A stretch of DNA of 64,000 nucleotides from Patescibacteria group bacterium. Lineage in GTDB: Bacteria; Patescibacteriota; WWE3; UBA101185; UBA10185. Position numbers and translations under genes: made by a program. The DNA lies in the NCBI GenBank assembly GCA_049322215.1, contig JBMORU010000001.1, forward strand, positions 194,327 to 258,326, written 5' to 3'. The notes beneath the pieces are model-generated. The model saw only the letters and a list, made by a program, of their open reading frames with translations, was not told the origin of the DNA and ran no database searches. This document shows positions 144 to 20,800 of this stretch, piece after piece; position 1 is the first letter of the stretch, and each line of letters opens with the position of its first letter.

Positions 144-1913
144 TTATACAAGTTTTTCGGAAAGTTCACTAAATTTTTTAGACAGTTCCATTAACAACAC
201 TTTATCATTTTCTAATTCTGCCTGTTTTATTTTCGAACTTATTTCCGTTAATTCTCTCTTAACAGTTTCTTTTTTTATACGATTAAATACTAAGTCTAAC
301 TCCCGTAGTAACAAAGTACTATTGTCATTTAATATACCCAAATCCCACATATACATATTAACGACAAGATCTTTTGTTTCGCTATCAAATTTGTTACTAA
401 AGGAATTAATATTGAAGGCTCTTTTTCTACCAAGTAAATAGTTTTTGAGATTTATAAAAATATTCTCCAGTATTGGATTAGTGAAGTCCTTCTGTCCAAG
501 CTTATACAATAGGGTTTGGGCACTGTCAAGAGGAGCTTTTAGTAACAAAGCTAACATATACTCCTGAGTAGATTTCTTTGACAACATATATTGTGATTTG
601 CCTAACTCCTTTTGCTTTTTAGATTTAATTTTAGACTCATCTATTTCTCCTTTTTTTATCATATTCCTAACAGTAGGCTCTGTTATATCTAACACTTCGG
701 ATAAATGTTTAACATAGTGATCAAAATCAACAGGACTGGAAATTTTAGAATATAAAGGAATAAGCTCTTCCATGATTTTCTTTTTACCTATAGAACTATG
801 CCTGTTATTTTTCTTTAACGTTGCATGTAAGAAAAAATCATACACAGGAACAGCGTCTTTAAAAATAGAAGATACTTTAGAACTATCGGCATGAACAAAC
901 TCATCTAAATCTTTGTATTCATCAGGAATTAAAGCTACTTTTACATTAAAACCTTCCTTTTCTGCCATAGGAACTGCCCTTATTATGGCCTCACGGCCGG
1001 CATTGTCGTTATCAAAGCATAAAGTTACATCTTTTGTGTACCTCGATAGCACTTTAAGCTGCCCTATAGTTAAAGAAGTACCTAAAGGCGCCACCACGTT
1101 TTTTACACCAATTTCGTATGCTGAAATAACATCTAAAGGCCCTTCTACTAAAATAGCGCCGTTTTTCTTTATTTCAATTTTTGCTTTATCTAGTCCAAAA
1201 AGTAGAGCACTTTTAATGAAAATGGGGGTTTCACTAGTATTAATATACTTTGGATCTTCGTTAAAAATGGTCCTTGCTGTGTAGCCAACTACTCTTCCTG
1301 AAGGATCACTAATAGGAAACATTACACGCCCTCTAAACTTATCTATAAAACCCTCGCCGGAGCGTTTTTTCATTACTAAACCTGCAGAAAGCATATCTTT
1401 TGCTGTAAATTTTTTTGAAGACAATGTTTTAAAAAGGCTATCCCAAGTTTTTGGGGCATACCCAATTTTAAATTCCTTTATTGTGACATCACTTAGCCCG
1501 CGTTCTTTTTTTACATATGTTAGAGCTTCTTTTCCCACCTTATGCTTAGTTAATAAATAGTAGTAAAAAGCTGTCGCTACATGATTAATTTCATAAAGTA
1601 TTTCTTTACTGTTTTTTTGCGGATCTATGTTTTTTTTATCTAACTTAACACCAGCTTTTTCGGCCAATAATTCTAATGCCTGACTAAATTCGACACCTTC
1701 AATTTTTTGAATAAAGTTGAAAATATCGCCTGCTTCATTACAACCAAAACACTTAAACATTTGTAGTTCGGGTGAAACCATGAAAGAAGGCGTATCTTCA
1801 GAATGAAACGGACAAACAGCTTTGTAGTTTCTACCTGCTTTTTTTAAAGAGATATATTCGGCAATAAGATCTTCAATATTTATTTTTTGTTTGATTTCGG
1901 CTATTGAATCCAT
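144..1913 (-). CDS. dnaG: DNA primase DnaG
   Basis: N-terminal CHC2 zinc finger (CPFHSEDTPSF...FKCFGC), central Toprim region (EGPLDVISAYEIG, DNDNAG), 589 aa. Confidence 0.9.
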   Translation of the reverse strand: MDSIAEIKQKINIEDLIAEYISLKKAGRNYKAVCPFHSEDTPSFMVSPELQMFKCFGCNEAGDIFNFIQKIEGVEFSQALELLAEKAGVKLDKKNIDPQKNSKEILYEINHVATAFYYYLLTKHKVGKEALTYVKKERGLSDVTIKEFKIGYAPKTWDSLFKTLSSKKFTAKDMLSAGLVMKKRSGEGFIDKFRGRVMFPISDPSGRVVGYTARTIFNEDPKYINTSETPIFIKSALLFGLDKAKIEIKKNGAILVEGPLDVISAYEIGVKNVVAPLGTSLTIGQLKVLSRYTKDVTLCFDNDNAGREAIIRAVPMAEKEGFNVKVALIPDEYKDLDEFVHADSSKVSSIFKDAVPVYDFFLHATLKKNNRHSSIGKKKIMEELIPLYSKISSPVDFDHYVKHLSEVLDITEPTVRNMIKKGEIDESKIKSKKQKELGKSQYMLSKKSTQEYMLALLLKAPLDSAQTLLYKLGQKDFTNPILENIFINLKNYLLGRKRAFNINSFSNKFDSETKDLVVNMYMWDLGILNDNSTLLLRELDLVFNRIKKETVKRELTEISSKIKQAELENDKVLLMELSKKFSELSEKLV

Positions 1914-1974
1914 AGACTTAGTTTATATTCTGTATAGCAAAAACAATCAGCTATAACAATTAAGTGAGTAAAAG

Positions 1975-2340
1975 TTATTTTTCAACAACACAGTCAGCAG
2001 GACAAGATTCAACTGTTTCGGCACAAGGACATCCTGTTCCCAAACAAACTATTTCTTGGCATGTATTGTCGCCACAAAGATTTTCACAAATGTCAGAGGG
2101 TATATCTGATATATCTGCGGGAGGTACTACTTTTGGAGCACTAAGATCAGTAAAAGTTCTACCATCTGGCGTAGTGCATATTGGAGGATATATTAACAAT
2201 GTTTCATAACCCGCTGAAATGCAGGATTCGTAACTGTTTACATTAGCTAGTTTTTTGTTTGTATATACATTGAAAGTTAAAAAAGACACACAAAAAAGTA
2301 AAATAGCGAAAGATAAAGAAAGAATAAGGAATTTAGACAT
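1975..2340 (-). CDS. hypothetical secreted cysteine-rich protein
   Basis: N-terminal signal peptide/TM (FLILSLSFAILLFCVSFL), 14 Cys in 121 aa; no recognisable family. Confidence 0.45.
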   Translation of the reverse strand: MSKFLILSLSFAILLFCVSFLTFNVYTNKKLANVNSYESCISAGYETLLIYPPICTTPDGRTFTDLSAPKVVPPADISDIPSDICENLCGDNTCQEIVCLGTGCPCAETVESCPADCVVEK

Positions 2341-2360
2341 TTGGTAAATAATAACATATG

Positions 2361-2450
2361 TGGCGGAGGGAGGGGGATTTGAACCCCCGTGCCGCTTGCG
2401 CAGCGCGTCGCTTTCCAGGCGAGCCGATTAGACCGCTCTCGCATCCCTCC
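2361..2450 (-). tRNA. tRNA-Ser (anticodon GGA), 90 nt, long variable arm
   Basis: Minus-strand read GGAGGGATGCGAGAGCGGTCTAATCGGCTCGCCTGGAAAGCGAC...GGGGGTTCAAATCCCCCTCCCTCCGCCA: 7-bp acceptor, D arm CGA/TCG, anticodon loop CUGGAAA, long extra arm, T arm GGGGG/CCCCC, encoded CCA. Confidence 0.8.
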
Positions 2451-2473
2451 ACAACGGGACTGAGTATACCAAA

Positions 2474-2869
2474 CTATATTTTGCAATTACACTCTTTATC
2501 TTTATTCAATAACACTGCAGCAGGTTTATAAAGCTTACTTCTGTTTTTGGCTACCCAAGTATAAACAGCTTCTGAAAAACGCGCAAAAGGCTTAACTTTT
2601 GTATACATCCAGGAAAATGGGTTGTAGGGATGATAAACAGAATACAAAGTATAAACAGCTTCTGCCCCTGAATAAACTTGTCCATCAACCCCTATTAATT
2701 TAACAGCATGTGCAAAATCTTCTTTACTAATATGTGGGTATAGGGCAGCCACTGCCTGATAAGGAGAAAAGGCTACTTTGTTATTACTATCTTTTTGCCA
2801 CTTTTCCACCCAAAGCTTGCAAAAAGCACATTCATCATCATAAATTAAGTGCGGTTTTTCAGTGTTCAT
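2474..2869 (-). CDS. DCC-family (DUF393) thiol-disulfide oxidoreductase-like protein
   Basis: N-terminal IYDDECAFC CxxC motif typical of DUF393/DCC; 131 aa. Confidence 0.55.
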   Translation of the reverse strand: MNTEKPHLIYDDECAFCKLWVEKWQKDSNNKVAFSPYQAVAALYPHISKEDFAHAVKLIGVDGQVYSGAEAVYTLYSVYHPYNPFSWMYTKVKPFARFSEAVYTWVAKNRSKLYKPAAVLLNKDKECNCKI

Positions 2870-2886
2870 ATAAATATATTACACCT

Positions 2887-2977
2887 TGGCGGAGGGAGGG
2901 GGATTCGAACCCCCGTGTCACTTGCGCAACGCTTGGTTTTCGAGACCAGCCCGTTATGACCACTTCGGTATCCCTCC
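2887..2977 (-). tRNA. tRNA-Ser (anticodon CGA), 91 nt, long variable arm
   Basis: Minus-strand read GGAGGGATACCGAAGTGGTCATAACGGGCTGGTCTCGAAAACCAAG...GGGGGTTCGAATCCCCCTCCCTCCGCCA; anticodon loop CUCGAAA; acceptor and T arm nearly identical to the Ser-GGA gene at 2361..2450. Confidence 0.8.
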
Positions 2978-3186
2978 GTATGGTTTTATACACTGCAACA
3001 TAAATTCTGCCATGAGTCTAGCTCGAAAGTAAAAAAAAACAAAGCGTATTTAAGCTACATAACATCTTAAAAAATAATAATAAATAGTTACTTGACTTCA
3101 AGAATGGCAATCCCGTAGCATATAAATACCAAATATATTTGGCAGGAATCACAAGAATGTTAAGGTTAGATAAACATCCTATAGGG

Positions 3187-3215
3187 TTGACACGCTGCAG
3201 CTAATAAGCTACAAT
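3187..3215 (+). promoter_or_regulatory. sigma-70-like promoter upstream of the 3251 gene
   Basis: TTGACA (3187-3192), 17-nt spacer, TACAAT (3210-3215), about 36 nt before the ATG. Confidence 0.45.
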
Positions 3216-3250
3216 GCTCATTAATATATTGCCTGCCAATATAAAAGCTT

Positions 3251-4273
3251 ATGAAAAAAAGCGAATTTTTAAACAAACCTGTAAAACATATTGATATTAA
3301 GAGTATAAACTCTACTGAAATCATCAACTCCATGGAACACATGGGCTTTACCTCCCGCGATTTAGCACGAGCCACTAAAATTTACTGCAAAATGCTAAGA
3401 GAAAAAGACTGCACCATAGCTCTTACGTTAGCCGGTAGTACTAGCGCAGCTGGTTGTATGGACATTTACACAGATTTAGTAAAAAACAACATGATAGATG
3501 TAATAGTTGCTACAGGAGCAAGCATAGTAGATATGGACTTTTTCGAAGCACTTGGTTTTAAACACTATCAAGGAACTCAAGATGCAGATGATGCTCAACT
3601 AAGAGATTTATATATTGACAGAATTTACGACACCTACATAAACGAAGAAGAACTACAAAAATGCGATGCCACTATAAAAGATATAGCAAACTCTTTAGAA
3701 CCAAGACCCTACTCTTCGAGAGAATTTATTAAAGAAATGGGTAAATGGTTAACGAAAAATGCAAAAAAGAAAAATTCTTTGGTAGAAACAGCTTATAAGC
3801 ACAATGTGCCAATATTTTGCCCTGCTTTTTCAGACAGTAGTGCCGGATTTGGATTAGTAGAACATCAGGTACAAAACCCTAATAACCATTTAACTATAGA
3901 TTCAGTAAAAGATTTTAGAGAACTTACAGAAATAAAAATGAATGCAAAAACCAGTGGAATGTTAATGATTGGTGGTGGTGTACCTAAAAACTTCTGGCAA
4001 GACACTGTAGTTTGCGCAGAAATCTTAGGAAAAGAAGTTCCTATGCATAAATATGCAATTCAAATAACCGTTGCCGACGTAAGAGATGGCGCATGCTCTA
4101 GTTCTACATTAAAAGAGGCTCAATCATGGGGTAAAGTTGATACTACTTATGAGCAAATGGTTTATGCTGAGGCAACATCGGTATTACCTTTGCTTGCAAG
4201 CTATGCTTACCACAATGTAGATCATGAAAACCGTAAAAAACACGAGTGGGCAAAGCTTTTTGATAAAAAATAG
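3251..4273 (+). CDS. deoxyhypusine synthase-like protein
   Basis: 340 aa; glycine-rich MLMIGGGVPKNF motif and overall layout resemble the deoxyhypusine synthase family; assignment by recall, not alignment. Confidence 0.5.
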   Translation: MKKSEFLNKPVKHIDIKSINSTEIINSMEHMGFTSRDLARATKIYCKMLREKDCTIALTLAGSTSAAGCMDIYTDLVKNNMIDVIVATGASIVDMDFFEALGFKHYQGTQDADDAQLRDLYIDRIYDTYINEEELQKCDATIKDIANSLEPRPYSSREFIKEMGKWLTKNAKKKNSLVETAYKHNVPIFCPAFSDSSAGFGLVEHQVQNPNNHLTIDSVKDFRELTEIKMNAKTSGMLMIGGGVPKNFWQDTVVCAEILGKEVPMHKYAIQITVADVRDGACSSSTLKEAQSWGKVDTTYEQMVYAEATSVLPLLASYAYHNVDHENRKKHEWAKLFDKK

Positions 4274-4282
4274 TGCCTATTA

Positions 4283-5989
4283 CTAGTGATCCGCCCAATG
4301 TGCTGGGTGATTATGTCCTAATTCTTTTCTTTCCTTCAAATATGCAACATGTTTATCTTTTTCTGCAGTAAAACGATCAATATTAAACCAATGCTCTGCT
4401 GCAAGCATAGCTGCAAAATGCCCTCCAATAAAATGAGGCAATATTACATAAGAGGCACCTTTTTCATAAAGCTTTAGCGCTTCATCAATATCGTGGCATA
4501 TTGAAATAATTATTACATCTTCATTCAAGGGCCGTATTTTTGAAATTAGATATTCATTCGTTTCATATTCAGGAATAGTAGATATAACCATTTTGGTTTT
4601 CTCTAAGTTTAAGGAATCTAAAAATTCTCCATCTTCAGCATCACCATAACGGGCATTTATTCCTGTTTTAGACATTTCCGCAACTAAGTCAGGATCAAAA
4701 TCAACAACTAAAAAGCTTTGTCCAAGCTTATTAAATAGTTTTACAAAATCGTATCCAACACGATGTGCTCCAAATAAAACTACTTCATAAGAAGAAAGTA
4801 TGTCAGATTCAGATATAATTTTTTTACGTTCAAAAATACCTAAATATGGAGCAAATAGTGGGTACAGTTTTTCAGAATACATTATTAAGTAGGTTGAAGC
4901 TGCAATTGTGATAATGGCGAGCAAAGTTATAAGAGACAGCACATCGTTATTTATATGACCAACTTCTTTTCCTAATAAAACCAAAATCAGGGAAAATTCA
5001 CTTACTTGCGCCATAGCTAACCCCGATTGAAAACTTGTTTTTCGGTTATAGCCTAAAGCACCCATTAAAGCAAAAATTATTACGGGTTCTACAATTAACA
5101 CAAACACAGATAATACTATAATTGGCCACAATAAGGTTGAAATGCTGTCAAAAGTTAAACTAGATCCTAAAAACACAAAAAACATTATTATGAAGAAATC
5201 ACGTAAAGGTTTAAGTTTAGAGCTGATTTCATGACTATAGGGAGAAACAGATAAAGCTACACCTGCGACTAATGCCCCAATTTCGACCGAGAAGCCGATA
5301 AAATTAAATAAAGAGGCTAATCCAAATCCCCAACCTATTGAAAACAAAAATAAAAATTCTTGAGATTTTGCAAAAAAAGTACTTAACTTTGGAAGAGCAT
5401 AAATACTAATTAAAATTAAAAACGCTCCAATTGCTATACCCTTTAATAACAACAAAAAAGCTAAGTAACCCGCATTTCCACTGGCAGAAGTTGCTGACAC
5501 AAAGATTAGGGCAAATGTAGCAACGATATCTTGCACCAAAAGTAAACCAACAGAAATTTTCCCATATAATTTGTCAATATCACGTTTGTCCGATAAAAAC
5601 TTTAAAACAATAATTGTACTACTAAAAGTTACCGCAGCGGCAATGTATAAAGCTTCCACAGTAGAATAGTTAAAGGCTTTGGCAGCTAAAAATCCCAAAA
5701 AGGATGTGACAAATATTTGCCCTACTCCTGCTATTAAAGCTACCCTACCTACTTCTCTGGCAACTTTAGGACTTAAATGTAAACCTACAATAAAAAGCAA
5801 AATAGAAACTCCGAATTCAGAAAAAACTTCTATAGTTTCTTGGGAGTGCACAAAACCAAAAAATAAAGGCCCTACTATTAAACCGGTTAATATGTAACCC
5901 ATTACAAGCGGTTGTTTAAATAACCGCATCCAAGCAGCTATAACAGTAGCAATAACAAGTAATAGGCTTATTTCTAAAAATATCGACAT
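4283..5989 (-). CDS. Kef-type monovalent cation:proton antiporter (CPA2) with C-terminal RCK/TrkA-N domain
   Basis: About 12 TM helices followed by a Rossmann-like VVLFGAHRVGYDFVKLFNKLGQSFLVVDFD segment. Confidence 0.8.
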   Translation of the reverse strand: MSIFLEISLLLVIATVIAAWMRLFKQPLVMGYILTGLIVGPLFFGFVHSQETIEVFSEFGVSILLFIVGLHLSPKVAREVGRVALIAGVGQIFVTSFLGFLAAKAFNYSTVEALYIAAAVTFSSTIIVLKFLSDKRDIDKLYGKISVGLLLVQDIVATFALIFVSATSASGNAGYLAFLLLLKGIAIGAFLILISIYALPKLSTFFAKSQEFLFLFSIGWGFGLASLFNFIGFSVEIGALVAGVALSVSPYSHEISSKLKPLRDFFIIMFFVFLGSSLTFDSISTLLWPIIVLSVFVLIVEPVIIFALMGALGYNRKTSFQSGLAMAQVSEFSLILVLLGKEVGHINNDVLSLITLLAIITIAASTYLIMYSEKLYPLFAPYLGIFERKKIISESDILSSYEVVLFGAHRVGYDFVKLFNKLGQSFLVVDFDPDLVAEMSKTGINARYGDAEDGEFLDSLNLEKTKMVISTIPEYETNEYLISKIRPLNEDVIIISICHDIDEALKLYEKGASYVILPHFIGGHFAAMLAAEHWFNIDRFTAEKDKHVAYLKERKELGHNHPAHWADH

Positions 5990-6088
5990 AGGCAGTTGTT
6001 ACTAATAATATCAAAAAAATGAGGCCTTTATTCATAATTGGTAAAATTACGAATAAGACCTCAAGTAAAATATAACCGTTAGCTTAAG

Positions 6089-7012
6089 TTAAACACGTTC
6101 TTTTGTATTTTGACTTGTCCCTCTACGCGCCTTAATGCGAAAATAAGCACGCATAAAGATAAACACTGCCGCTAACAAACCTAAACCCGACGCCCAAACA
6201 CTAAGTTTAAACGAAGTTTTTTGCGCCTCAGGAGCTAACAGGTATTGAACTTCGTAGATATCTGCCATGTCAGGGTCGCCCGCTTCGTTGTACACTAAAC
6301 CCTCTTGAGCAATAATGTTGTACTCTACTTGCGTCCAGGCAACATCAAAGGCCAAGTCGGTGGGAAGCTCTGCACTCAACTCGGCAACGATAGTGTTTTC
6401 ATCCCGTAAATTTGGAAAATCACGGTTGGTGTCGTAGCGAGTACCTGTTTTTGGATCTAAACCAAGTGCCTCTAACTCAGCAGCAAACTTTTCAGCGCCG
6501 CCGTGTCTCTTCAATAAACTCAACCAAAGTTCTTCATACTTTGAATTACGTAACATTGAAGTGAGATCAAGGCAATGGCGGGGCACCCATTTACGGTACT
6601 CCACTAAGTAACCTCTATCCCACACTGGTTGGCCGCTGTCATCCATATTTGGGGGAGCATCAATCATACGAGCTCTTTGACCATTAAGCGCTGCTGGCGG
6701 ATCATCGGTATCAGCTTGAATCAGCACGATGTTACCAACTGTGCGAGCAAACACCTTTGTTGGGCGCGCAAACGTACCGGGCCCCCACTGCTGGTATTCT
6801 TGTCTTCCGCATTTGGTACTTTCTTGCACCGAAATGTTTCCAGCCCGCGACAAAGCGTTGAAAAAATCATACGCCACGGGCATAATGCGTCGAACATCAA
6901 GGTAGTTTTGTGCCATTGCAGTTTTTCGTGTACCCTGAGTGTTTAAACCCAAAGTCAGTAGCATAAATGCTAAGACCAAGGCAAAAACCACTCGTGTTTT
7001 TTTAGAGAACAT
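6089..7012 (-). CDS. hypothetical secreted protein with C-terminal TM anchor; compositionally atypical (G+C-rich)
   Basis: Signal peptide MFSKKTRVVFALVLAFMLLTLG; C-terminal hydrophobic helix plus basic tail (GLGLLAAVFIFMRAYFRIKARR); DNA visibly more G+C-rich than neighbours. Confidence 0.5.
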   Translation of the reverse strand: MFSKKTRVVFALVLAFMLLTLGLNTQGTRKTAMAQNYLDVRRIMPVAYDFFNALSRAGNISVQESTKCGRQEYQQWGPGTFARPTKVFARTVGNIVLIQADTDDPPAALNGQRARMIDAPPNMDDSGQPVWDRGYLVEYRKWVPRHCLDLTSMLRNSKYEELWLSLLKRHGGAEKFAAELEALGLDPKTGTRYDTNRDFPNLRDENTIVAELSAELPTDLAFDVAWTQVEYNIIAQEGLVYNEAGDPDMADIYEVQYLLAPEAQKTSFKLSVWASGLGLLAAVFIFMRAYFRIKARRGTSQNTKERV

Positions 7013-7090
7013 AATCTACTCCTTGTTTTGTTGTATTTGTATGAATCTCTGGGTTTTAACCAGCATTAATTATACCATTACTATAGGACA

Positions 7091-8455
7091 TTATAAAGCT
7101 CTAAGTTCACCGGTTTTACCATTTAAAACAACATTGTCACCGCTAAAGTTTTGAATAGACTTGTCTAAAACAATGGCAGGAATACCCATTTCTCTAGCTA
7201 CTATAGACCCATGTGACAAAGGGGAACCTACCTTAAACACTAAACCTTTTGCCTTTTTAAATTGCTCAGTAAATGTAGGAGAGGCATTTGGAAAAACCAG
7301 AATATCACCTTTTACAGTATCTTTTACTGAGTTAACTACCTGCAAAGTACCTTTTACAAAACCAGGGGAACAAGGTATGCCAACAAAAGAAAATGGTTCA
7401 ACAGCCTGTAAACTTTGCTCAGGAATATCAGGTAGTTCAGTTAAAACTGTAGGTAAATTTAAATAAGGTCTATACTCTTTTTTACGAAAAACTGCTAAAT
7501 GGTTAGCAGAAGGCAATTTATTTAATTTACCTAATTCATCTAATGTTAAAAATCCAAAATATTTCACGTTGTTTTTATCTGCAAATTCTCTTAAAGAGTC
7601 GTTTAGTAATGACAACATTAAACCAGTTTTTAGTCTCATATTATTTTTGTAGCATTGAAACAAAACTTCAGCTTTAACAGTTTTTGCAATATTTAAAGTT
7701 AAGTCAGGTAACGTAGAAGGAATTAAATTTGCATTTAGCTGCTGACCTAAATATCTACGCTCCTCTCCTAAATAAAAGTCTGATGAAACCTCATGCTCTA
7801 AAAACCTAACTTTGTCATTTAGCAAATAATCATTAGTATTAACATACTCTTGAATTTCTGCATCTTTAGGTACTATTTTTTTATGATTGTTATATGAAAA
7901 AACCAGTTCGTACAAATACGAAACATAAACTACAGATTCGTATAAATCCAAAAAGTCATTAATTGATAACTCGCGTGATTTAAATTTAGATTCTACAGTA
8001 TCGGAAAAATCTTTGTATTGGCTTGATGCTTCTTCAATATATTCTTCAATGTTATTTAGAATTTTTACTTCTATAAATGTTTTATTCAAAAAACCTTTTA
8101 TAGATTTAATTAAATTGCCTTTCACATGAAACTTTAATACAGAATTATTATTAGAAACAACTAAACGATACCCTGAAGCTTCCCAAATTGCTTTATTTTC
8201 TAGTTCAATATCACTATAAACTTGGCCATATATGTTTTTTAAATAAGAAGGGTATTCTTTGGTGGTACCAAGACCAAAGTTTAGCAAAATATTATTGTAA
8301 GGACCGCCTGAATCAAAAATAAGTTTAAGTAAACTAAAAGTTAATGGATTCGCTACCGTGGCAAGTTCACCTACACGACCTGCTACGTAAACACTATTTA
8401 AATTTACAGGGGGTTCCATATCAATTATCATAATTATATGAACTTTAAAACACAA
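7091..8455 (-). CDS. PEP-utilising-enzyme mobile (phosphohistidine swivel) domain protein
   Basis: C-terminal GSPLSHGSIVAREMGIPAIV matches the phosphohistidine swivel motif of PEP synthase/pyruvate phosphate dikinase/rifampin phosphotransferase-like enzymes; N-terminal 350 aa not recognised. Confidence 0.55.
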   Translation of the reverse strand: MCFKVHIIMIIDMEPPVNLNSVYVAGRVGELATVANPLTFSLLKLIFDSGGPYNNILLNFGLGTTKEYPSYLKNIYGQVYSDIELENKAIWEASGYRLVVSNNNSVLKFHVKGNLIKSIKGFLNKTFIEVKILNNIEEYIEEASSQYKDFSDTVESKFKSRELSINDFLDLYESVVYVSYLYELVFSYNNHKKIVPKDAEIQEYVNTNDYLLNDKVRFLEHEVSSDFYLGEERRYLGQQLNANLIPSTLPDLTLNIAKTVKAEVLFQCYKNNMRLKTGLMLSLLNDSLREFADKNNVKYFGFLTLDELGKLNKLPSANHLAVFRKKEYRPYLNLPTVLTELPDIPEQSLQAVEPFSFVGIPCSPGFVKGTLQVVNSVKDTVKGDILVFPNASPTFTEQFKKAKGLVFKVGSPLSHGSIVAREMGIPAIVLDKSIQNFSGDNVVLNGKTGELRAL

Positions 8456-9061
8456 CTAACTGTCGTGATGAGCATACTAACAGGCTCTTTATTTATAGTA
8501 AAGCCCGTGCACGCATTAGTTGTAGGTCCAATATTTGCAATAGGCTTAGTTAAGTTTTGCTTATTTCTTGTTGGAACACTAGCTGCTCCAATAACTACAC
8601 TAATACTTTTCCTTAAAAAAGGGAGTTTTTTAAAAAAACTTTTAATAACACTAACCGTATTAGTAGCAATATTTAGTATTAGTTATTTTCTTTTTAAAAC
8701 CGTTTTTCCCGAACTAAACTTTATTACATACGAATTGGGTAACGTTGATATGATCGAAACGAATACACAGTTTAAAGCTAAACCTATGAACGGCGCAGCC
8801 CCTGCCGGACTAGTGTTAAAAAACTCGTTTACAAAGGTTGAGATAGCAAAAATGGGTATATTTATTGCATTAGTAACAACTCTATTAACAAGCCCCGTAG
8901 TTGGTGTTATGCAAATAATAATGTATTTGGTACAAAAAAAGCACTTGATACTAAAAAAAGTACTATTAACAAGTATTCTTGTAGGTTTAATTTTGGGTAT
9001 AGCAATTTCTTACTTTTTAATGGGAACCATATTACACACAGAAGGCCTACTAACAATTTAA
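8438..9061 (+). CDS. hypothetical polytopic membrane protein
   Basis: 207 aa, 5-6 predicted TM helices; no recognised motif. Confidence 0.4.
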   Translation: MNFKTQLTVVMSILTGSLFIVKPVHALVVGPIFAIGLVKFCLFLVGTLAAPITTLILFLKKGSFLKKLLITLTVLVAIFSISYFLFKTVFPELNFITYELGNVDMIETNTQFKAKPMNGAAPAGLVLKNSFTKVEIAKMGIFIALVTTLLTSPVVGVMQIIMYLVQKKHLILKKVLLTSILVGLILGIAISYFLMGTILHTEGLLTI

Positions 9062-9067
9062 AAATAA

Positions 9068-9949
9068 TTAATTACCTAAATGTAAGTAAACCCCAACTCC
9101 GCCCGTAGAATCAGTTACATAAGAGCTAAAACCATAGTTATGTGTGCTATAGCGGGACCCCAAATTTAATTCTAAAGCAGTTAAATCAGTTTTGACCAAA
9201 GCACTGTTACTGCTGCTGTGAGCAACCACATCAGGATGCAGAAAATAGGTAACATTTCCCACTTCAGTATCAAAAGACTGAACAGAAAAGAAATCGTGCG
9301 CAGTATAAATAGGGTGAGGCTTAGTCAAAGATGTTTTATCTAGATGATAAAAGTTTTTTGAAGAATCCCAAAACACTAACCAATCCGTTTGAACTCCATA
9401 TTCACTTAAATCTAAATCAAAAATTTGAGTATTATAACCTTTGAGCAAGACAGCACGAGAATTAATTAATTCACCATCGATACTAAAAAAAACATCACTT
9501 TTACTGGTACTTCCCCCAAACTTAACAAAGGGCTTTTCAGCTCTTATAACCATTGACGTATATATTTCGGGAATATTAATATCAAATTTAGTATCTTGAA
9601 TAAAAAAAGATCCTTTAACAGAACTCACATACTGATTTAAAGAATCGACATCAGATATAGCCATTGAATTAGGTTTTAAAACGGTAGATTCCCATACACC
9701 ATCATTGTAAAAATGTGCCCAACCAAAATGACGATTGTTTTCTATAAAGTAGTCTACAACTAATACTTTATAAGGTGTTTCTTCTGAAACTATTACAACA
9801 TCGTATTCCTCTCTAAAGTCGTTAGAATTTTTTGGTATAGGTGGAACTATTTTTATGCCCGAAAAATAAACCCAGGATGTAAAGACACCTAAAGTAAATA
9901 AGCTAACAAAAGATAATATTAATAATGGAATAAGGAGTTTCTTTTGCAT
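9068..9949 (-). CDS. hypothetical membrane-anchored protein
   Basis: N-terminal TM (LLIPLLILSFVSLFTLGVFTSWVYF) followed by a 260-aa extracytoplasmic domain. Confidence 0.45.
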   Translation of the reverse strand: MQKKLLIPLLILSFVSLFTLGVFTSWVYFSGIKIVPPIPKNSNDFREEYDVVIVSEETPYKVLVVDYFIENNRHFGWAHFYNDGVWESTVLKPNSMAISDVDSLNQYVSSVKGSFFIQDTKFDINIPEIYTSMVIRAEKPFVKFGGSTSKSDVFFSIDGELINSRAVLLKGYNTQIFDLDLSEYGVQTDWLVFWDSSKNFYHLDKTSLTKPHPIYTAHDFFSVQSFDTEVGNVTYFLHPDVVAHSSSNSALVKTDLTALELNLGSRYSTHNYGFSSYVTDSTGGVGVYLHLGN

Positions 9950-10030
9950 GAATAAATGTTAGCACGAAAAAAAAGGAGCAAAATAACGATGGTTTTATTT
10001 ATCGTTACAGTGCTCCAATAAGGAAGGCGG

Positions 10031-10402
10031 CTAGTCTTTGGTAGTCAACAAAAGTAAGGCTACCAATGACATTACAAAGGCCAGAACACTGCCCGAGATA
10101 GCGCCGAAAGCGTAGTTGAGGTCAATTATGGCGCGCATTATTTCGGGCGAGGGCATTTGGACTAACATTTCAAAGCCACCCCGAACAAGCCCCAAAACCG
10201 TTACCAAAGCTGCCAATGACACTATTTGGTTAAGAAAAGCAGGAAGCTCTGTTGCCAAAAGTTGATCTGCAGGCATACCCTGGGCATAGTTTAAGACTAC
10301 CTTGAAAGGTTCAAGGGCAGCAATAGAAAACCCAGCGATCAAGACCAGCAATATAACACCGATAACTAGCACCAAGCGGTTACGATTTGTGCGTGTGAAC
10401 AT
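10031..10402 (-). CDS. small hypothetical membrane protein (G+C-rich ORF)
   Basis: 123 aa, 3 TM helices; DNA markedly more G+C-rich than flanks. Confidence 0.4.
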   Translation of the reverse strand: MFTRTNRNRLVLVIGVILLVLIAGFSIAALEPFKVVLNYAQGMPADQLLATELPAFLNQIVSLAALVTVLGLVRGGFEMLVQMPSPEIMRAIIDLNYAFGAISGSVLAFVMSLVALLLLTTKD

Positions 10403-10514
10403 GACAATCTCCTTTTTTTTGTGACACTATGTATCTGATCAGATTTGTTTAATACATATATTATAATACAAAATCAATAAAATTACTATGGGGTATTAAC
10501 GTGCGTGGTTTGTA

Positions 10515-10590
10515 TGGTGCGCCCGGAGGGATTCGAACCCCCGACTTCAACTTCCGCAAAGTTGCGCTCTATCCCCTGAGCTACGGGCGC
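10515..10590 (-). tRNA. tRNA-Arg (anticodon GCG), 76 nt
   Basis: GCGCCCGTAGCTCAGGGGATAGAGCGCAACTTTGCGGAAGTTGAAGTCGGGGGTTCGAATCCCTCCGGGCGCACCA folds as a canonical cloverleaf: 7-bp acceptor, D stem GCTC/GAGC, anticodon stem CAACT/AGTTG, loop UUGCGGA, A20-equivalent present, encoded CCA. Confidence 0.7.
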
Positions 10591-10674
10591 AAAAAAAATT
10601 TCGCTAAAACAAACTTAAGCAAAAAGGTATAGCCTATTATACGACGAAAATGAAATTATTTAAGAGTAAATTAC

Positions 10675-11268
10675 TTAGTTAGAAGTATCGTCAAAGTTGA
10701 AACGTGCTGAAACAAAGTTGCGAGCGTCTGTAATAATGTCGCTTGGTTCTTCTTCTAGTTTAGGTAAATAAGTTCCAAAGTAACCATCTAGAGCTGTTTT
10801 ATCCTTATCATCGATTAAAAAGTATAAACGCCCTGGCAAAGAAGTAACCGTGTCGGCACATAAAACATTAAAAGCATCTTGTTTTTTAAAAAAGTAATAT
10901 TTTAATTCGTGCCAATAGTAAAATTCTCCGGCAAAAGAAACGCCATGAGTAGTAACAACGTGAGTAACTTCTTCTGAAGGAGTAGCTGATAAAACATAGT
11001 AAACAAATATTATGCTTGCTATTAGGCCAATTAGTAAAAATTCTTGCATGGCAATTAAAAGCAAAGCAACTACAACTAAAATTATTACTACATTTTTAGC
11101 AAGTTTAGTATTCATTTTTTTATTCTGTCGGGTAATAGCTTTCCAGGTATGTAAAACCTTTTTTTCTCCAGCTGTAGATAGGTCAAAAACCTTTCCTGAG
11201 GGAATCACAGGCTCGTTTCTTCTGTAATTAGTTATTCCTAAAAAGTTAGTAACGTCGTCTACTTGCAT
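10675..11268 (-). CDS. hypothetical membrane protein
   Basis: Listed ORF 10675..11340 overlaps the tRNA-Ser 3' end; start trimmed to internal Met (MQVDDVTNF...). Contains two TM helices. Confidence 0.45.
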   Translation of the reverse strand: MQVDDVTNFLGITNYRRNEPVIPSGKVFDLSTAGEKKVLHTWKAITRQNKKMNTKLAKNVVIILVVVALLLIAMQEFLLIGLIASIIFVYYVLSATPSEEVTHVVTTHGVSFAGEFYYWHELKYYFFKKQDAFNVLCADTVTSLPGRLYFLIDDKDKTALDGYFGTYLPKLEEEPSDIITDARNFVSARFNFDDTSN

Positions 11269-11284
11269 ATAATTAAAGCTTTCC

Positions 11285-11370
11285 TGGCGGAGGGTACAGG
11301 ATTCGAACCTGTGGACGAAAAAATCGTCACGGCTTAGCAAGCCGCTGCATTACCACTCTGCCAACCCTCC
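11285..11370 (-). tRNA. tRNA-Ser (anticodon GCU), 86 nt
   Basis: GGAGGGTTGGCAGAGTGGTAATGCAGCGGCTTGCTAAGCCGTGACGATTTTTTCGTCCACAGGTTCGAATCCTGTACCCTCCGCCA; anticodon loop UUGCUAA, extra-arm hairpin GACGA/TCGTC, encoded CCA. Confidence 0.8.
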
Positions 11371-11428
11371 AAAAACATTGGGCAGGGTTAATTAATTATA
11401 TATCGTTACTTGCAAAAAACACAAGAAA

Positions 11429-12133
11429 CTAGTGTTTAAATTTGAGTAAAGGCTTTTTTGCTAGAGTGAAGCAGCAAACACTAGAAGCCCCCGCATAAAA
11501 CAAAGCTTCAGTAGCACTTAATAAAGTAGCCCCAGAAGTACAAATATCGTCTACTAATAAAATTCTTTTTTGCTGAATATTTTTAAACGCTTTGAAACTT
11601 TTAGATAAATTAATTATGCGCTCTTTTTTTGATAACTTATGTTGAGGAATAGTATCGCTTGTGCGCACTAAACAATCACTGTAAACAAGATTGAGCTCTT
11701 TACATAAAACTTTGGCAATAAGCGATGCCTGGTTAAAACCACGAACTTTCTTTTTCTTTTTACTCAATGGAACGGCACAAACAAAGTCAAAAGAACTAGG
11801 CAGACCACACTTAGAAAAATACAAAGCTGCTTCTCTTGAAAGAATTTTTAAGGCAGCAAACTCATTAGCACCATACTTAGATTTTAAAATACACTTTCTG
11901 ACGCAATCCTTATAAATAAAGGCAGAAAAAACAAAACTTATACCACCATTATTTATGGTACGGTCTTTGCAAAGTAAGTGCGTTTCTCCATTTATTGAGG
12001 CTTTGTCGCATGTTAGGCAATACGCCTCATTTAAAGGGATTGCTTTATCTAAACATGCTCTACAAAAACTTGAAGAAAAGTTCCCACAAATGACACATGT
12101 GGGAGGAAAAATTGTATTAAATAGCTTTTCCAT
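11429..12133 (-). CDS. comFC: ComF-family protein (double zinc ribbon plus phosphoribosyltransferase domain)
   Basis: N-terminal CVICGN...CRAC...CLTC...C zinc ribbons and C-terminal PRTase signature ILLVDDICTSGATL. Confidence 0.7.
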   Translation of the reverse strand: MEKLFNTIFPPTCVICGNFSSSFCRACLDKAIPLNEAYCLTCDKASINGETHLLCKDRTINNGGISFVFSAFIYKDCVRKCILKSKYGANEFAALKILSREAALYFSKCGLPSSFDFVCAVPLSKKKKKVRGFNQASLIAKVLCKELNLVYSDCLVRTSDTIPQHKLSKKERIINLSKSFKAFKNIQQKRILLVDDICTSGATLLSATEALFYAGASSVCCFTLAKKPLLKFKH

Positions 12134-12285
12134 AAGTTATCCACATAAACACGAACGCTTTAAATACAACAAAATGTTCCTTACTACCCTGTAGTACGTT
12201 TGCTCTATTAGCCTATATAATTATGTGCGAAATACAATCACAGAAATTCTAGCAATACTAGGAATAGAGAGTTATCATCAAGCGT

Positions 12286-13536
12286 ATGGAAATTAATAGA
12301 TTTCAACTGAAAAATGGCCTTCAAATATTGCACTTACCCTACAAAGAAGTTGACTCAGTAACACTGAGCCTTAAAGGCTTTGCAGGAGCTGTATTTGAAA
12401 AGGAAAACGAAATCGGAGTGGCACATTTTCTTGAGCATTTAGTTTTTGATGGAACAGAAAAATACCAAACATCTAAAAAACTAGATGATGTACTAGATAA
12501 CGTAGGAGGTACCTCAAATGCAGGAACATCTAAAGAATATGTAGAATATTGGGCAAAAACACTTTCCCAACATAAAAAATTAAACTTTGACTACATTTCT
12601 CAAATAGTTCTACACCCACTATTAAGACAAAAAGGAATAGACAAAGAAAAAGGTGTTATAGAGCAAGAAATAAACAGATTTAAAGACTCTCCTGAAGCAC
12701 TTAGTCCAAGAATTGCATACAAAATTTTATTTCCAAATCAAAGACTGGGACATTTTATTTCAGGTGACATAGAAGACATTATGAAAATAGACAAAGAAAA
12801 TATAAATTCTTTTGTAAATAGAACTTACAATTCTAATAACTTTGTATTAGCAGTTTGTGGAAATATAGGTTTAGAAGAAACCCAAGATTTAGCTCAAAGC
12901 TTTTTTTCAAATTTTAAGGCAGGAAAAAAACAAACAGCAGAAACGCCAAAAAAAAGTCTTAAGCAAGAAAGCCAAACAATTAACAAAATAAGCTTAAATC
13001 AAGCTACTCTACAACTTGATTATTATGGGTATGACTACAATCAAAGCAAAAAGTACGCACTAGCAGTACTATCTAATATTATAGGTACTGGCTTTTCATC
13101 AAGACTTTTTCAACTAATACGTGAAAGAAACAGCTTGGTATACCACATTGGAAGTTATTTATCTGTTGGTACAAATTATGGTGTTTTTAGCATATTTGCA
13201 GGACTAGACGAACAAAATATTGATAAAACAATTGACCTAATTAACAAAGAATTTAAAAAAATTGTTAAAAATGGAATAACAGCAAAAGAATTACAGAAAG
13301 CTAAAAACACAGTAAAGGCAAGCTTTAGCTTTGGGTTTGAAAGCGCTTCAACAAGGGCATCATATTATTCCAACTTAGCTTTATTTCAACCCAATATAAA
13401 AAGTCATTTAGAAGAACTTGAAAGCTACGAAAAAGTAACGCTAGATGAAGTAAAAAGCGTAGCAAAAGAAATTTTAGAACAAATGCCTAAAATTACCGTA
13501 ATTGCCCCAAATTTTAAAAAAACAAATCAACGCTAG
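12286..13536 (+). CDS. M16-family zinc metallopeptidase (insulinase-like)
   Basis: Inverted zinc-binding motif HFLEHLVFDG (HxxEH) near the N-terminus; 416 aa. Confidence 0.8.
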   Translation: MEINRFQLKNGLQILHLPYKEVDSVTLSLKGFAGAVFEKENEIGVAHFLEHLVFDGTEKYQTSKKLDDVLDNVGGTSNAGTSKEYVEYWAKTLSQHKKLNFDYISQIVLHPLLRQKGIDKEKGVIEQEINRFKDSPEALSPRIAYKILFPNQRLGHFISGDIEDIMKIDKENINSFVNRTYNSNNFVLAVCGNIGLEETQDLAQSFFSNFKAGKKQTAETPKKSLKQESQTINKISLNQATLQLDYYGYDYNQSKKYALAVLSNIIGTGFSSRLFQLIRERNSLVYHIGSYLSVGTNYGVFSIFAGLDEQNIDKTIDLINKEFKKIVKNGITAKELQKAKNTVKASFSFGFESASTRASYYSNLALFQPNIKSHLEELESYEKVTLDEVKSVAKEILEQMPKITVIAPNFKKTNQR

Positions 13537-13539
13537 TGC

Positions 13540-15411
13540 TTGTTCTTCGGGTTATTTTTGGTAAAATCTGGAAATTCAATGAATATAAAAAAAGAAAGAA
13601 AAACCAAGCAGGAATATTTAGAAGACAATAAAAATATATTAATTGCGCTAAAACGCATGATTTCTTATACGTTTAAAATTGCTCCAATTTGGTCTGCGTT
13701 AGTTTTAATTTCAAGCATTGCAAGTGCAATACTGCCTTATTTAGCAACCTGGGTGAACAGCAAAATCATAGATGAACTAGTTACAATTGCCACCTCAGGA
13801 AACTCTGATACTGCTAAATTAATGTACTACGTCGGCGTAATTGTAGCTTATATGATATTTACTAGTTTACTAGGTAGAATAAAAACCTATGCCAGAGTAA
13901 ACATGTACTTTGCTGTATCTAGAGAATTTGGTCACATGGTTACTATAAAGCTCGCACATTTAGATACGGAGCACTATGAAAACCCTGATACTAATGACTT
14001 ACTACAAAAAGTAAGAGAAAACTATACCCACAGGCCACAAGAATTTGCATTTATTGCTTTTAACACAATAGAAATTATAACCTCTGTAATATCTGGAATG
14101 GTAATTATGATCAACTTTTCACCTATAATTGCTGTGATTTTGATACTTGCAACAATGCCTATATTAGTAAACGATATTGTTTACGGAAAAAGAAACTGGG
14201 GCATTTGGGGAGCAAAAGGCGATGTAAGAAGAGATTACCATAGCACTAGAAGTAGTTTAGTAAATGAAAACGAACTAAAAGAATTACGCGTATTTAAAAC
14301 AAGGCCATACTTTTTAAATAGAATATATAACCTTTACTATGACTTTCAAAAAGAAGAAATTAAGCTAGAAAAGGCTAGAACTGTAACTAGAATCGTTTTG
14401 GATTTGGTTAATGTTGCAGGCTTCACCTTTGTATTTTTAACAATTGTACGCAGAGTCATAGCAAAGACTATATCAATTGGTGACTTTAACTTTTATGTTA
14501 GTACCTCTAGAAGTTTAAGAAGCGCGCTTGGTGAATTTTTCGGAAGGCTATCGAGACTATATGAAAATGGTTTATATGTAGTAGACATTTTTAAAGTGTT
14601 AGATTTTGAAAATAAAATAGAGGAAGGTACACAAGAATTAGCCAATAAACAAACACCTCCCTTAATTGAGTTTAAAAACGTTTCTTTCACCTATCCTGGC
14701 ACAGAAAAAGCGATTTTAAAAAACTTCAGTTTAACTATAGAACCAGGAGAACATATTGCTATTGTAGGAGAAAACGGAGCAGGAAAAACTACTCTTATAA
14801 AATTATTAATGCGCTTTTACGATGTTACTGAAGGCGAAATATTACTTGATGGAATTAATATAAAAAATCTTAAATTAGATAATCTATACTCAAAAGTAGG
14901 TACTTTATTTCAAGACTTTAACACTTATCATTTTGACGCAAAGACTAACATTGGAATTGGAAATGTTGAAAATTTAAATAATATTGAAGGAGTAGTAAAC
15001 GCAGCCAAACAGTCAGGAGCACATTCGTTTATAAGTGATTACACAAATGGCTATGAGCAAATACTAAGCAAAGCATTTAAAGAAGGCATAACGCCTTCTA
15101 CAGGACAGTGGCAAAAAATTGCATTAGCGCGCGCCTTTTTCAAAGAAGCACCAATACTAGTTTTAGACGAACCCACCAGCGCAATTGATCCAAAGGCCGA
15201 ATATGAAATTTTTGAAAAATTGTTTGATTTTGCAAAAAATAAATCAGTAATAATAATATCTCATAGGTTTTCTACTGTTAGAAATGCAAACAGAATTCTT
15301 GTTATAAACGACGGAAATATTTTAGAACAAGGTACTCATGAAGAGTTAATGCAAATTGAAGATGGTAAGTACAAACATGCTTTCGAGTTGCAAAAGAAAG
15401 GTTATGAATGA
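13540..15411 (+). CDS. ABC transporter, fused permease/ATP-binding exporter (MsbA/ABCB-like)
   Basis: 6 N-terminal TM helices; Walker A GENGAGKTT, signature STGQWQKIALARA, Walker B ILVLDEPTSA. True start may be the downstream Met (MNIKKERK). Confidence 0.8.
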   Translation: MFFGLFLVKSGNSMNIKKERKTKQEYLEDNKNILIALKRMISYTFKIAPIWSALVLISSIASAILPYLATWVNSKIIDELVTIATSGNSDTAKLMYYVGVIVAYMIFTSLLGRIKTYARVNMYFAVSREFGHMVTIKLAHLDTEHYENPDTNDLLQKVRENYTHRPQEFAFIAFNTIEIITSVISGMVIMINFSPIIAVILILATMPILVNDIVYGKRNWGIWGAKGDVRRDYHSTRSSLVNENELKELRVFKTRPYFLNRIYNLYYDFQKEEIKLEKARTVTRIVLDLVNVAGFTFVFLTIVRRVIAKTISIGDFNFYVSTSRSLRSALGEFFGRLSRLYENGLYVVDIFKVLDFENKIEEGTQELANKQTPPLIEFKNVSFTYPGTEKAILKNFSLTIEPGEHIAIVGENGAGKTTLIKLLMRFYDVTEGEILLDGINIKNLKLDNLYSKVGTLFQDFNTYHFDAKTNIGIGNVENLNNIEGVVNAAKQSGAHSFISDYTNGYEQILSKAFKEGITPSTGQWQKIALARAFFKEAPILVLDEPTSAIDPKAEYEIFEKLFDFAKNKSVIIISHRFSTVRNANRILVINDGNILEQGTHEELMQIEDGKYKHAFELQKKGYE

Positions 15412-18922: not shown

Positions 18923-19603
18923 TTAACGGAATCGTACCAAAAACCAATCGTCGCCTTTGTATTTTTTGGTGAGGTTGGTTTCGAATACTTGGTAACTCAT
19001 CTGTTTCAATGTGCGACTATGTAGCAAAAAAGCACCTTGTGGAACCTCTACATTAGGAGCACCTTCTGTAGAAATTGCACGGTAGCTTGAGGTACCAACG
19101 TTTGCAGTTTCCAACTTGTTATTTCGTACTCGGATTTTTTTATAATTTCCAAGTTGAAGCACGAGTTGGAGACCATAACCTTCTTTGACAGCAACCACGT
19201 GGGTACGACCGTAATGACGATCTTTACCTTCAGACAAAAGCGTATTCCATCCGTATTCTATTTCCACTACTGCGTACCCTTTGGGTAAATAGCGCAAAAA
19301 CAAACCTTCTTGGTCAGCTATTTGCCATCCGTGATGCACTTTGTACGTTCGGCTAACAAAATGTCTTTCCTTCAGTTTTCCGTCGTGGTAAAAAATGGCG
19401 TCTTTGTAAACCATTTTTTCCAAACCAAGAGATTCAAGAAAAGCATTTAACTCTTCGGCATAATCAAATTTCTTGCCCGCAACAGCCATAGCACGTTCAA
19501 TGGGCAGGTGTAAATACATGCTCCCATTAAACTTACTACCATAAGGCAAATGCCATTTACGGGGGTTAAAGCGAACATTAGAAACCAAAAGTTGTTGTGA
19601 CAT
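18923..19603 (-). CDS. hypothetical protein (moderately G+C-rich ORF)
   Basis: 226 aa, soluble, no recognised motif; composition richer in G+C than neighbours. Confidence 0.45.
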   Translation of the reverse strand: MSQQLLVSNVRFNPRKWHLPYGSKFNGSMYLHLPIERAMAVAGKKFDYAEELNAFLESLGLEKMVYKDAIFYHDGKLKERHFVSRTYKVHHGWQIADQEGLFLRYLPKGYAVVEIEYGWNTLLSEGKDRHYGRTHVVAVKEGYGLQLVLQLGNYKKIRVRNNKLETANVGTSSYRAISTEGAPNVEVPQGAFLLHSRTLKQMSYQVFETNLTKKYKGDDWFLVRFR

Positions 19604-20380: not shown

Positions 20381-20800
20381 ATGATTCCTTGTTATAATCT
20401 GCACACAAACAAAATCTACCAAAATAAGGAGTTGACCATGGCTCAAAAATTATATGAACCAGATCGTGGGGGCATTAAAAAGTTCAGAATAAAAATTGTG
20501 TGCCCTCACTGTAGTGAAGAAACCGAAATGCCAATAAGTGATCTCACTACGGGTACTGTGATTTATGCGAAACTAACCAAAACGTGCAAATGTGGTAAAT
20601 ACCAGTTCCAGCTGCAGTATCTAAATACGGGTAATGTATTAGTAATGCATCGTACTCGAACGGCAAGATTTCTACAAAAGGACGAGTATGGCAAATGGCA
20701 TCATATGTTCCTGTCACAAGGTTACAGCCAACCATACAGTCCAGACCTGACAAAAACGTACCGATACAAATCAATCGAATACCAATACGTCAGAAAATAA
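20381..20800 (+). CDS. hypothetical zinc-ribbon protein
   Basis: CPHC...CKCGKY pattern; probable true start MAQKLYEP at about 20438. Confidence 0.4.
   Translation: MIPCYNLHTNKIYQNKELTMAQKLYEPDRGGIKKFRIKIVCPHCSEETEMPISDLTTGTVIYAKLTKTCKCGKYQFQLQYLNTGNVLVMHRTRTARFLQKDEYGKWHHMFLSQGYSQPYSPDLTKTYRYKSIEYQYVRK

Follow-up and report, generated by a model that had tools for sequence, protein, structure and literature searches.

The stretch analysed here, hereafter the window, comprises 64,000 nt of a Patescibacteria (candidate phyla radiation, CPR) genome of the WWE3 lineage (GenBank assembly GCA_049322215.1, contig JBMORU010000001.1, positions 194,327 to 258,326). Our results suggest that one of its genes, the 307-codon open reading frame (ORF) ACOZAO_01075, was probably acquired horizontally, and recently, from a phage-like gene pool, as a single-gene insertion in this lineage. 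The source would be phages or phage-like elements, and the insertion site would have been the space between a Kef-type antiporter gene and a gene encoding a PEP-utiliser mobile domain. An earlier note on this DNA had already proposed a horizontal acquisition, and we retain this proposal because the deviating composition is restricted to the ORF, the position is occupied by a short gap in a syntenic relative (L013), no orthologue is present at the equivalent Kef loci, and the relatives of the gene lie in phage-like contexts where their G+C content resembles that of their own contigs.

The ORF (6089..7012) is located on the minus strand, which the earlier note had left unstated, with its ATG at 7012 and its stop codon ending at 6089, and the reading frame is intact; the NCBI entry is a hypothetical protein (ACOZAO_01075 / MFZ5424370.1). 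Its G+C content is 46.0%, vs. 34.7% across the window, the highest value among all 924-nt windows (mean 34.8%, standard deviation 3.3). When compared with the 56 ORFs of at least 100 amino acids in the window, the gene deviates in both G+C (z = 3.4) and G+C at third codon positions (GC3; 0.419 vs. a mean of 0.249, z = 3.0). As claimed previously, it is clearly richer in G+C than both low-30s neighbours, the Kef-type antiporter gene (33.5%) and the PEP-utiliser-like gene (30.4%). The "high-40s" value estimated by eye applies to 400-nt sub-windows of the ORF (45.5–48.2%), but not to the ORF as a whole; the stretch encoding the ectodomain (codons 35–195) reaches 48.4%. Inside the ORF, 100-nt bins range from 41 to 53% G+C vs. 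28% in the downstream spacer and 31% in the upstream spacer. The G+C step starts and stops with the ORF, and the deviation is restricted to it.

The codon usage of the gene also differs from that of its surroundings, with a leave-one-out codon log-likelihood (z = -2.7) that is the third lowest of the 56 ORFs. As a host expectation, the same protein was re-encoded with the synonymous preferences of the window in 2000 simulations, giving a G+C content of 39.7% and a GC3 of 0.259. The observed GC3 (0.420) is about 7 standard deviations above these simulations and, therefore, more than half of the G+C excess stems from foreign codon choice. The main shifts concern GCG (25% vs. 7% in the window), TCG (31% vs. 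5%), GTG (50% vs. 13%), and CCC (36% vs. 14%), and CGN replaces AGA as the preferred arginine codon. Among the three codons reported beforehand as frequent, CGC shows a clear rise (26% vs. 11%) and GGC only a slight one (21% vs. 15%), whereas GCC is not enriched (12% of the alanine codons vs. 15% in the window). The protein itself contains more alanine and arginine, and fewer isoleucine, lysine, and serine residues, than the window average. The atypical G+C content and codon usage, confined to the gene, are the compositional mark of a horizontal acquisition.

This genome was assembled from a metagenome, where an outlying G+C content classically points to a chimera. The gene might instead be an artefact of chimeric assembly or of contamination during binning, or a G+C-rich insert that is non-coding and contains a spurious ORF. 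We regard such an artefact as extremely improbable. The arrangement of the 1,112,869-bp NCBI contig is reproduced in L001, assembled independently by Logan from SRR32167788, with the same gene order including the junction between the ORF and the antiporter gene, and this junction recurs in a different sample, ERR15087771. There, a contig of 2355 nt (L071) is 99.96% identical to positions 3999..6353 of the window, with one difference, and spans the final 87 ORF codons, the spacer, the antiporter gene, and the end of the deoxyhypusine-synthase-like gene. A spurious ORF is in addition hardly compatible with the 19 homologues sharing conserved motifs and with the confident domain model described below. 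From these relatives, their motifs and shared architecture, and the Shine-Dalgarno sequence and promoter-like site in front of it, we regard ACOZAO_01075 as a real gene. A second contig of ERR15087771 (L042, carrying h123, h293, and h207) is 90.7% identical to positions 8424..10544 of the window, about 2 kb from the region covered by L071, and each gene is seen in this sample in one version only (L071 or L042). This contrast suggests either two coexisting strains or a recent recombination of the block containing ACOZAO_01075, the antiporter gene, and the deoxyhypusine-synthase-like gene.

The earlier note had recommended protein searches for a donor lineage. A HMMER scan of 1.84 billion protein representatives retrieved 19 relatives (30–37% identity, E-values from 1.5e-22 to 2e-6), all of them unannotated and none named, and these relatives point to a phage-like donor rather than an identifiable cellular lineage. 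The protein matched no family in Pfam, NCBIfam (E up to 1), PHROGs v4, or PADLOC, the last of these covering anti-phage systems, and only scattered single-member matches at chance level were obtained when all 20 members were compared with the family libraries, including PHROGs and PADLOC. When 5.8 billion protein clusters were searched with a word index, the protein sequence retrieved only itself, and the family profile only the query and P0019. The family alignment proved too divergent for locus searches by back-translation. On the evidence of these searches, the protein belongs to a small unannotated family with about 20 representatives among the 1.84 billion proteins. Three residues (W76, P106, and Y139, in the numbering of ACOZAO_01075) are invariant across the family alignment, and the ectodomain contains the motifs DPPxxLxGxR, GYxxxYxxWxxRxCxDL, and LEAxGLxPxTG. 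The window protein is full length and retains every conserved position of the family.

The distribution of these relatives is informative regarding their origin. Eight of the 10 distinct contexts examined are phage-like, the other two being the window itself and the contig L005. The phage-like contexts (contigs L002, L003, L004, L006–8, L009, L010, L043, and L072) consist of dense, small, co-directional ORFs, mostly without a Pfam match, on contigs of up to 115 kb. Homologue contigs of 94–115 kb include JGI 3300056624 Ga0558117_00820, JGI 3300055001 Ga0556162_0000621, and Logan SRR12022141_4658. The Pfam matches near the phage-borne copies include DHFR, a ribosomal L12-like gene, and radical SAM together with GTP cyclohydrolase I genes. 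Using PHROGs, the neighbours were assigned to a full-length T4-type polynucleotide kinase (E 5e-84), a tRNA nucleotidyltransferase (3e-55), a phage DNA polymerase (2e-60), and a GTP cyclohydrolase (7e-56), as well as to HNH endonucleases, a Mom-like protein, and DUF932/phrog_1221; L072 additionally carries a clamp loader, a 5'-3' exonuclease, and a sliding clamp. No Pfam match to an endolysin or holin was found beside the family genes in the eight phage contexts. From their gene content, most family members appear to belong to large uncultured phages, where they sit in poorly understood regions for replication, nucleotide metabolism, and RNA repair. In these contigs, the G+C content of the family gene is close to that of its own contig (41/39, 41/40, 43/40, 45/38, 55/52, and 58/56% for gene and contig, respectively, and 40% vs. 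44% in L003, where the gene is 3.5 points lower). The gene-minus-contig difference is thus within 1–7 points in phage-like contigs, compared with +11 points for ACOZAO_01075.

Two further features of these phage-like contigs were observed. The 115.5-kb contig L006 (JGI 3300056624) contains a tandem duplication of about 9.66 kb (339..5090 and 10001..14752), which results in two family genes with their downstream phosphatase, kinase, and PNKP genes; only one copy is present in each of its sibling contigs, L007 and L008. A DUF932/phrog_1221 gene lies 0.07–3.6 kb downstream of the family gene in three phage contexts that otherwise differ, and the two may form a linked module:

L002, 14459..15568: DUF932/phrog_1221 gene
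L004, 7445..8563: DUF932/phrog_1221 gene
L072, 1010..2104: DUF932/phrog_1221 gene

The phage label must nevertheless be interpreted cautiously. Scans of IMG/VR with ACOZAO_01075, P0014, and P0008 gave no match, tblastn against GenBank phages gave none either, and no capsid or terminase gene was found within the readable 10-kb flanks of the homologues; therefore, the label rests on gene content and organisation. These observations weigh against a phage origin, as does the position of the window protein, a long branch roughly equidistant (29–36% identity) from every known member, for which no donor was identified. The remaining context, L005 (GCA_964495005.1, CAZBUE010000099.1), bears on the idea that the gene came from a cellular organism of approximately 45–50% G+C, the phage copies being parallel captures. 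Cell-to-cell transfer is documented as common in Patescibacteria (PMC12455944), and L005 does carry a family copy beside cellular genes. However, this copy is truncated (172 amino acids) and terminal on its 9-kb contig (1..1000), where the G+C content jumps sharply from 35–48% to approximately 60% and where the copy and a BTAD-domain gene overlap at the 3' end of the latter. It therefore does not look like a resident gene, and could be either a junction between a mobile element and a chromosome or a co-assembly chimera. Apart from ACOZAO_01075, no intact cellular copy was found among the 1.84 billion representatives, and a cellular donor seems unlikely to us.

The genomic context of the gene provides further evidence. 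ACOZAO_01075 is flanked by a Na+/H+-exchanger/TrkA-N (Kef-type) antiporter gene and by the gene with a PEP-utiliser mobile domain. GTDB genomes and JGI metagenomes served as sources of Kef-anchored loci, approximately 58 from Patescibacteria or archaea, and none of these contains a relative of ACOZAO_01075. The closest syntenic relative, L013 (labelled Saccharibacteria; its antiporter is 60% identical), keeps the order h293, h207, PEP-utiliser-like gene, and antiporter gene, with a gap of 31 nt between the latter two where the window has the 924-nt ORF. This absence at the syntenic position, together with the patchy distribution of the family, is the phyletic pattern that a horizontal acquisition would be expected to leave.

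Some aspects of the locus weigh on the other side. L013 is a distant relative, with its antiporter only 60% identical, and its PEP-utiliser-like gene covers only residues 7–284 of its counterpart in the window, lacking the C-terminal 170; the 31-nt gap could also stem from the loss of a gene in L013, without any insertion in the window. No Kef relative closer than 63% identity was found in the GTDB genomes and JGI metagenomes, none closer than 59% was retrieved by a scan of the JGI metagenomes with the antiporter, and a scan of these metagenomes with the PEP-utiliser-like protein found no relatives. In addition, no integrase was found near the gene, its flanking direct repeats are only at chance level, and no tRNA adjoins it, the nearest ones being approximately 3 kb away on either side.

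We also considered that the gene could be a native, fast-evolving CPR surface protein, whose G+C content would result from its amino acids or local selection, with phages having captured the family from CPR-like hosts. About five of the 11 excess G+C points can be attributed to the amino-acid composition of the protein, which is an argument against an acquisition. The gene is surrounded by genes for hypothetical membrane proteins specific to the lineage, and another G+C-rich membrane ORF of the window (10031..10402) is kept in a close relative, showing that such genes can persist in the lineage. Yet GC3 is 0.42 where 0.26 is expected for the same protein (z of about 7), the approximately 58 Kef loci and the syntenic L013 lack a homologue, and the search of 5.8 billion clusters gave this protein only. 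Moreover, the family occurs in phage-like surroundings in eight of 10 contexts, with a G+C content near that of the contig. A native origin consequently appears improbable, and the transfer, we infer, went from a phage-like pool to the bacterium.

The acquisition from this pool seems to have involved one gene. Other ORFs of the phage loci have no specific match in the window, only a generic 27% match between sliding clamps (dnaN) and a translated tRNA, indicating that a single gene is shared. A genomic island or prophage was rejected because there is one foreign gene only, without an integrase, repeats, or a tRNA at the junction, and the neighbours are of native composition and syntenic. In Patescibacteria, transferred genes, islands, and prophages represent up to 13% of the genome length (PMC12455944). 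ACOZAO_01075 resembles these elements in being foreign DNA in a streamlined CPR genome, but differs from them as a single gene of about 0.9 kb, with no integrase or repeats, from a family without annotation.

The protein and its surroundings can be divided into the following features, which, apart from the spacers, follow the layout common to the family:

6089..7012, minus strand: ACOZAO_01075, 307 codons (coordinates including the stop codon), the G+C-rich, probably foreign gene
6911..7012, minus strand: predicted Sec-type signal peptide, codons 1–34, by inspection
6428..6910, minus strand: conserved alpha/beta ectodomain, codons 35–195, from the alignment and the AlphaFold model
6227..6427, minus strand: acidic stalk or linker of approximately 70 residues, codons 196–262, poorly conserved, with pLDDT <50
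6092..6226, minus strand: predicted C-terminal transmembrane (TM) helix and cytoplasmic tail, codons 263–307, from hydropathy and the model
7013..7097, minus strand: upstream spacer, 31% G+C, with a Shine-Dalgarno sequence and a promoter-like site
5990..6088, minus strand: spacer separating the ORF from the downstream Kef gene, 28% G+C, 100% identical in L071

The N-terminus comprises a basic n-region (MFSKKTR), a hydrophobic core of 16 residues (VVFALVLAFMLLTLGL; mean Kyte-Doolittle hydropathy 2.77), and a predicted signal peptidase I (SPase I) site, AMA34|Q35, which coincides in the alignment with the A-x-A|Q sites of the relatives. The signal peptide and cleavage site were judged by rule and inspection. 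With its basic n-region, h-region, and small residues at -3 and -1, the protein has the features of a substrate of Sec and SPase I and is probably secreted. At the other end, a hydrophobic segment at approximately residues 266–290 (hydropathy 2.11) is followed by an arginine- and lysine-rich tail (RIKARRGTSQNTKERV) with seven basic residues and one acidic residue (+7/-1). This single C-terminal TM helix with a net-positive tail suggests a type I, C-terminally anchored membrane protein. The combination of a signal peptide and C-terminal TM segment, already recognised in the earlier note, is confirmed by inspection, by the helices of the AlphaFold models, and by the family: all relatives open with a signal-peptide-like segment, and a hydrophobic helix with a net-positive tail closes all 18 full-length sequences (two shortened sequences were left out of this count). 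Between both ends, the common layout includes a conserved domain of approximately 150 residues and a variable acidic stalk. A pair of cysteines (C68 and C147 in ACOZAO_01075) is kept in approximately 11 of the 20 members, which fits an extracytoplasmic domain. The window protein ends in ...KERV, and seven of the 18 full-length members (P0002, P0004, P0010, P0015, P0017, P0019, and P0020) have a short [KR]-[VE]-[YMV]-A end right after the TM helix, for example ...RVYA, ...KVYA, ...RVMA, ...KEYA, and ...REVA.

The AlphaFold2 model, based on the 20-sequence alignment, reaches a pLDDT >90 for 153 residues and over most of the ectodomain. It displays an N-terminal helix (residues 4–25), an alpha/beta domain at approximately residues 40–190 with helices 44–56, 134–145, 157–169, and 173–182 and a beta-sheet from strands 59–102, a low-confidence stretch (199–262), and a long C-terminal helix (262–304). 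Foldseek searches of PDB and BFVD with this model gave no match below E = 0.6, and a sequence-profile search of PDB with the family gave no match. Judged against PDB and BFVD only, the predicted ectodomain could provisionally be considered a new fold.

The surface display proposed in the earlier note holds in the form of a simple type I membrane anchor, but not of an LPXTG or PEP-CTERM sorting motif. The C-terminal helix followed by an arginine- and lysine-rich tail does resemble such sorting signals; however, neither this protein nor its relatives have an LPXTG, LAXTG, or PEP motif ahead of the helix, and the NCBIfam sorting-signal models did not match at E up to 1. A sortase substrate was rejected by a regular-expression search, with no LPXT[GAS], LAXTG, or NPXTG in the last 80 residues of the protein or its relatives. 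A PEP-CTERM/exosortase substrate was likewise rejected, as there is no [VI]PEP motif, only "APEA" about nine residues ahead of the helix, and no NCBIfam match.

Taking these features together, the protein would be exported by Sec, cleaved after AMA34, and tethered on the outer face of the cytoplasmic membrane by its C-terminal helix, with the basic tail inside (type I). The compact alpha/beta domain of approximately 150 residues would be held off the membrane by the acidic stalk of approximately 70 residues and, in this Patescibacterium, would be placed in the wall zone outside the cytoplasmic membrane. Upstream of the gene, an AAGGAG Shine-Dalgarno sequence lies approximately 7 nt ahead of the ATG. 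A promoter-like site at 7097..7069, TTTATA-17-TATAAT, matches 10 of 12 positions and includes an extended -10 TG; this site and the Shine-Dalgarno sequence are consensus matches only. The captured gene may now be expressed from these host-like signals, or may be heading to decay. It is possible that the gene is a remnant without a current function, but its reading frame is intact and no conserved residue has been lost.

Regarding the role of the family in phages, the presence of an N-terminal signal and a C-terminal TM domain brings to mind the topology of unimolecular spanins (u-spanins; PMC6139136), which, like this family, are phage-borne (T1 gp11 type). We nevertheless find it very unlikely that ACOZAO_01075 is a u-spanin. 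It has an SPase I-type A-x-A|Q site instead of a lipobox, with no cysteine before residue 68, and a possible lipobox was only seen in P0003 (LLSC) and P0013 (LTSC), two of the 20 members. The two conserved periplasmic cysteines of about half of the family have no counterpart in u-spanins, none of which (0 of 58) has periplasmic cysteines (PMC6139136). The family proteins are also two to three times longer (260–345 amino acids), with a folded, globular alpha/beta domain, and their genes are outside lysis cassettes, without an adjoining endolysin or holin and with replication, nucleotide, and RNA-repair genes as neighbours. No other phage gene is found in the window. Patescibacteria are not known to have an outer membrane, and a spanin would therefore have nothing to disrupt.

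As the phage copies are among replication, nucleotide-metabolism, and RNA-repair genes, and not among lysis or structural genes, an accessory role at the envelope is the most plausible. We tentatively suggest that the family could comprise envelope-acting phage accessory proteins, involved in superinfection exclusion, receptor masking, or envelope remodelling. Phage envelope accessory proteins include "morons" and superinfection-exclusion factors such as T4 Imm and Sp, P22 SieA, and P1 Sim. Like these, the family genes of phages lie away from the modules for structure and lysis, their products are predicted to be exported or membrane-anchored and would act at the envelope, the family is sporadically distributed and fast-diverging, and a copy may end as a single gene in a host chromosome. 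In contrast to T4 Imm and Sp, SieA, and Sim, ACOZAO_01075 would combine a cleaved signal and a C-terminal anchor with a domain of approximately 150 residues on a stalk, and it has no known sequence or structural similarity to them. A more speculative scenario, to which we give slightly less credence, would be that of an undescribed family of phage envelope proteins with a new fold, captured and kept intact by a CPR bacterium, expressed from host signals, and domesticated as a phage-exclusion or surface-interaction factor.

Other observations concern the neighbouring genes and the rest of the window. The PEP-utilising neighbour (7091..8455, minus strand) has only the mobile domain of approximately 70 residues (residues 382–449) on an unannotated N-terminal part, and its homologue in L013 (8956..9969) lacks the mobile domain entirely; the 5' end of the gene in the window overlaps a divergent membrane ORF of 207 amino acids (8438..9061). 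The G+C-rich membrane ORF mentioned above (10031..10402, minus strand, 123 amino acids) has a G+C content of 46.2% and a GC3 of 0.49, vs. 36.7% and 0.24 expected under host codons. It lies 113 nt from a tRNA-Arg gene (10515..10590) and has no family match. Its version in L042 (ERR15087771) is 74% identical at the amino-acid level, with 44% G+C, vs. 93–94% for the flanking genes, suggesting that it is older than the acquisition of ACOZAO_01075 and fast-evolving. This ORF was rejected as part of the same acquisition, since it is kept in a close relative and native syntenic genes lie in between.

The gene at 3251..4273 (plus strand) belongs to the deoxyhypusine synthase family (Pfam DS, E 3e-100) and is annotated by NCBI as 1,9-bis(guanidino)-5-aza-nonane synthase, a polyamine-type enzyme that is unusual in a reduced CPR genome. 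A protein of 1193 amino acids with CBM6/CBM35 carbohydrate-binding modules is encoded at 20861..24442 (39% G+C, G+C at second codon positions 0.47), next to a type IV pilin-like ORF (19731..20312) that has a methylation motif at its N-terminus, and near two mildly G+C-rich hypothetical ORFs (18923..19603 and 20381..20800). Finally, a radical SAM gene (25097..26395, plus strand; 42.3% G+C, GC3 0.37), with the fourth lowest codon-usage score of the 56 ORFs, is located about 1 kb from the tmRNA gene (27327..27732) and is possibly another foreign gene.

The capture of single phage genes is a known route to envelope functions in streamlined genomes, and the event itself is ordinary. The new part is the protein family, which is rare, has no library annotation, and has a confidently modelled domain without a detectable structural relative. 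In Patescibacteria, whose lifestyle is surface-dependent and whose phages are barely known, an intact and presumably exported protein of a phage-associated family is a small but concrete lead, bearing on phage–host linkage and on defence at the level of the envelope. If the donor phages infect Patescibacteria, ACOZAO_01075 would provide one of the rare links, at the sequence level, of CPR hosts to large uncultured phages.

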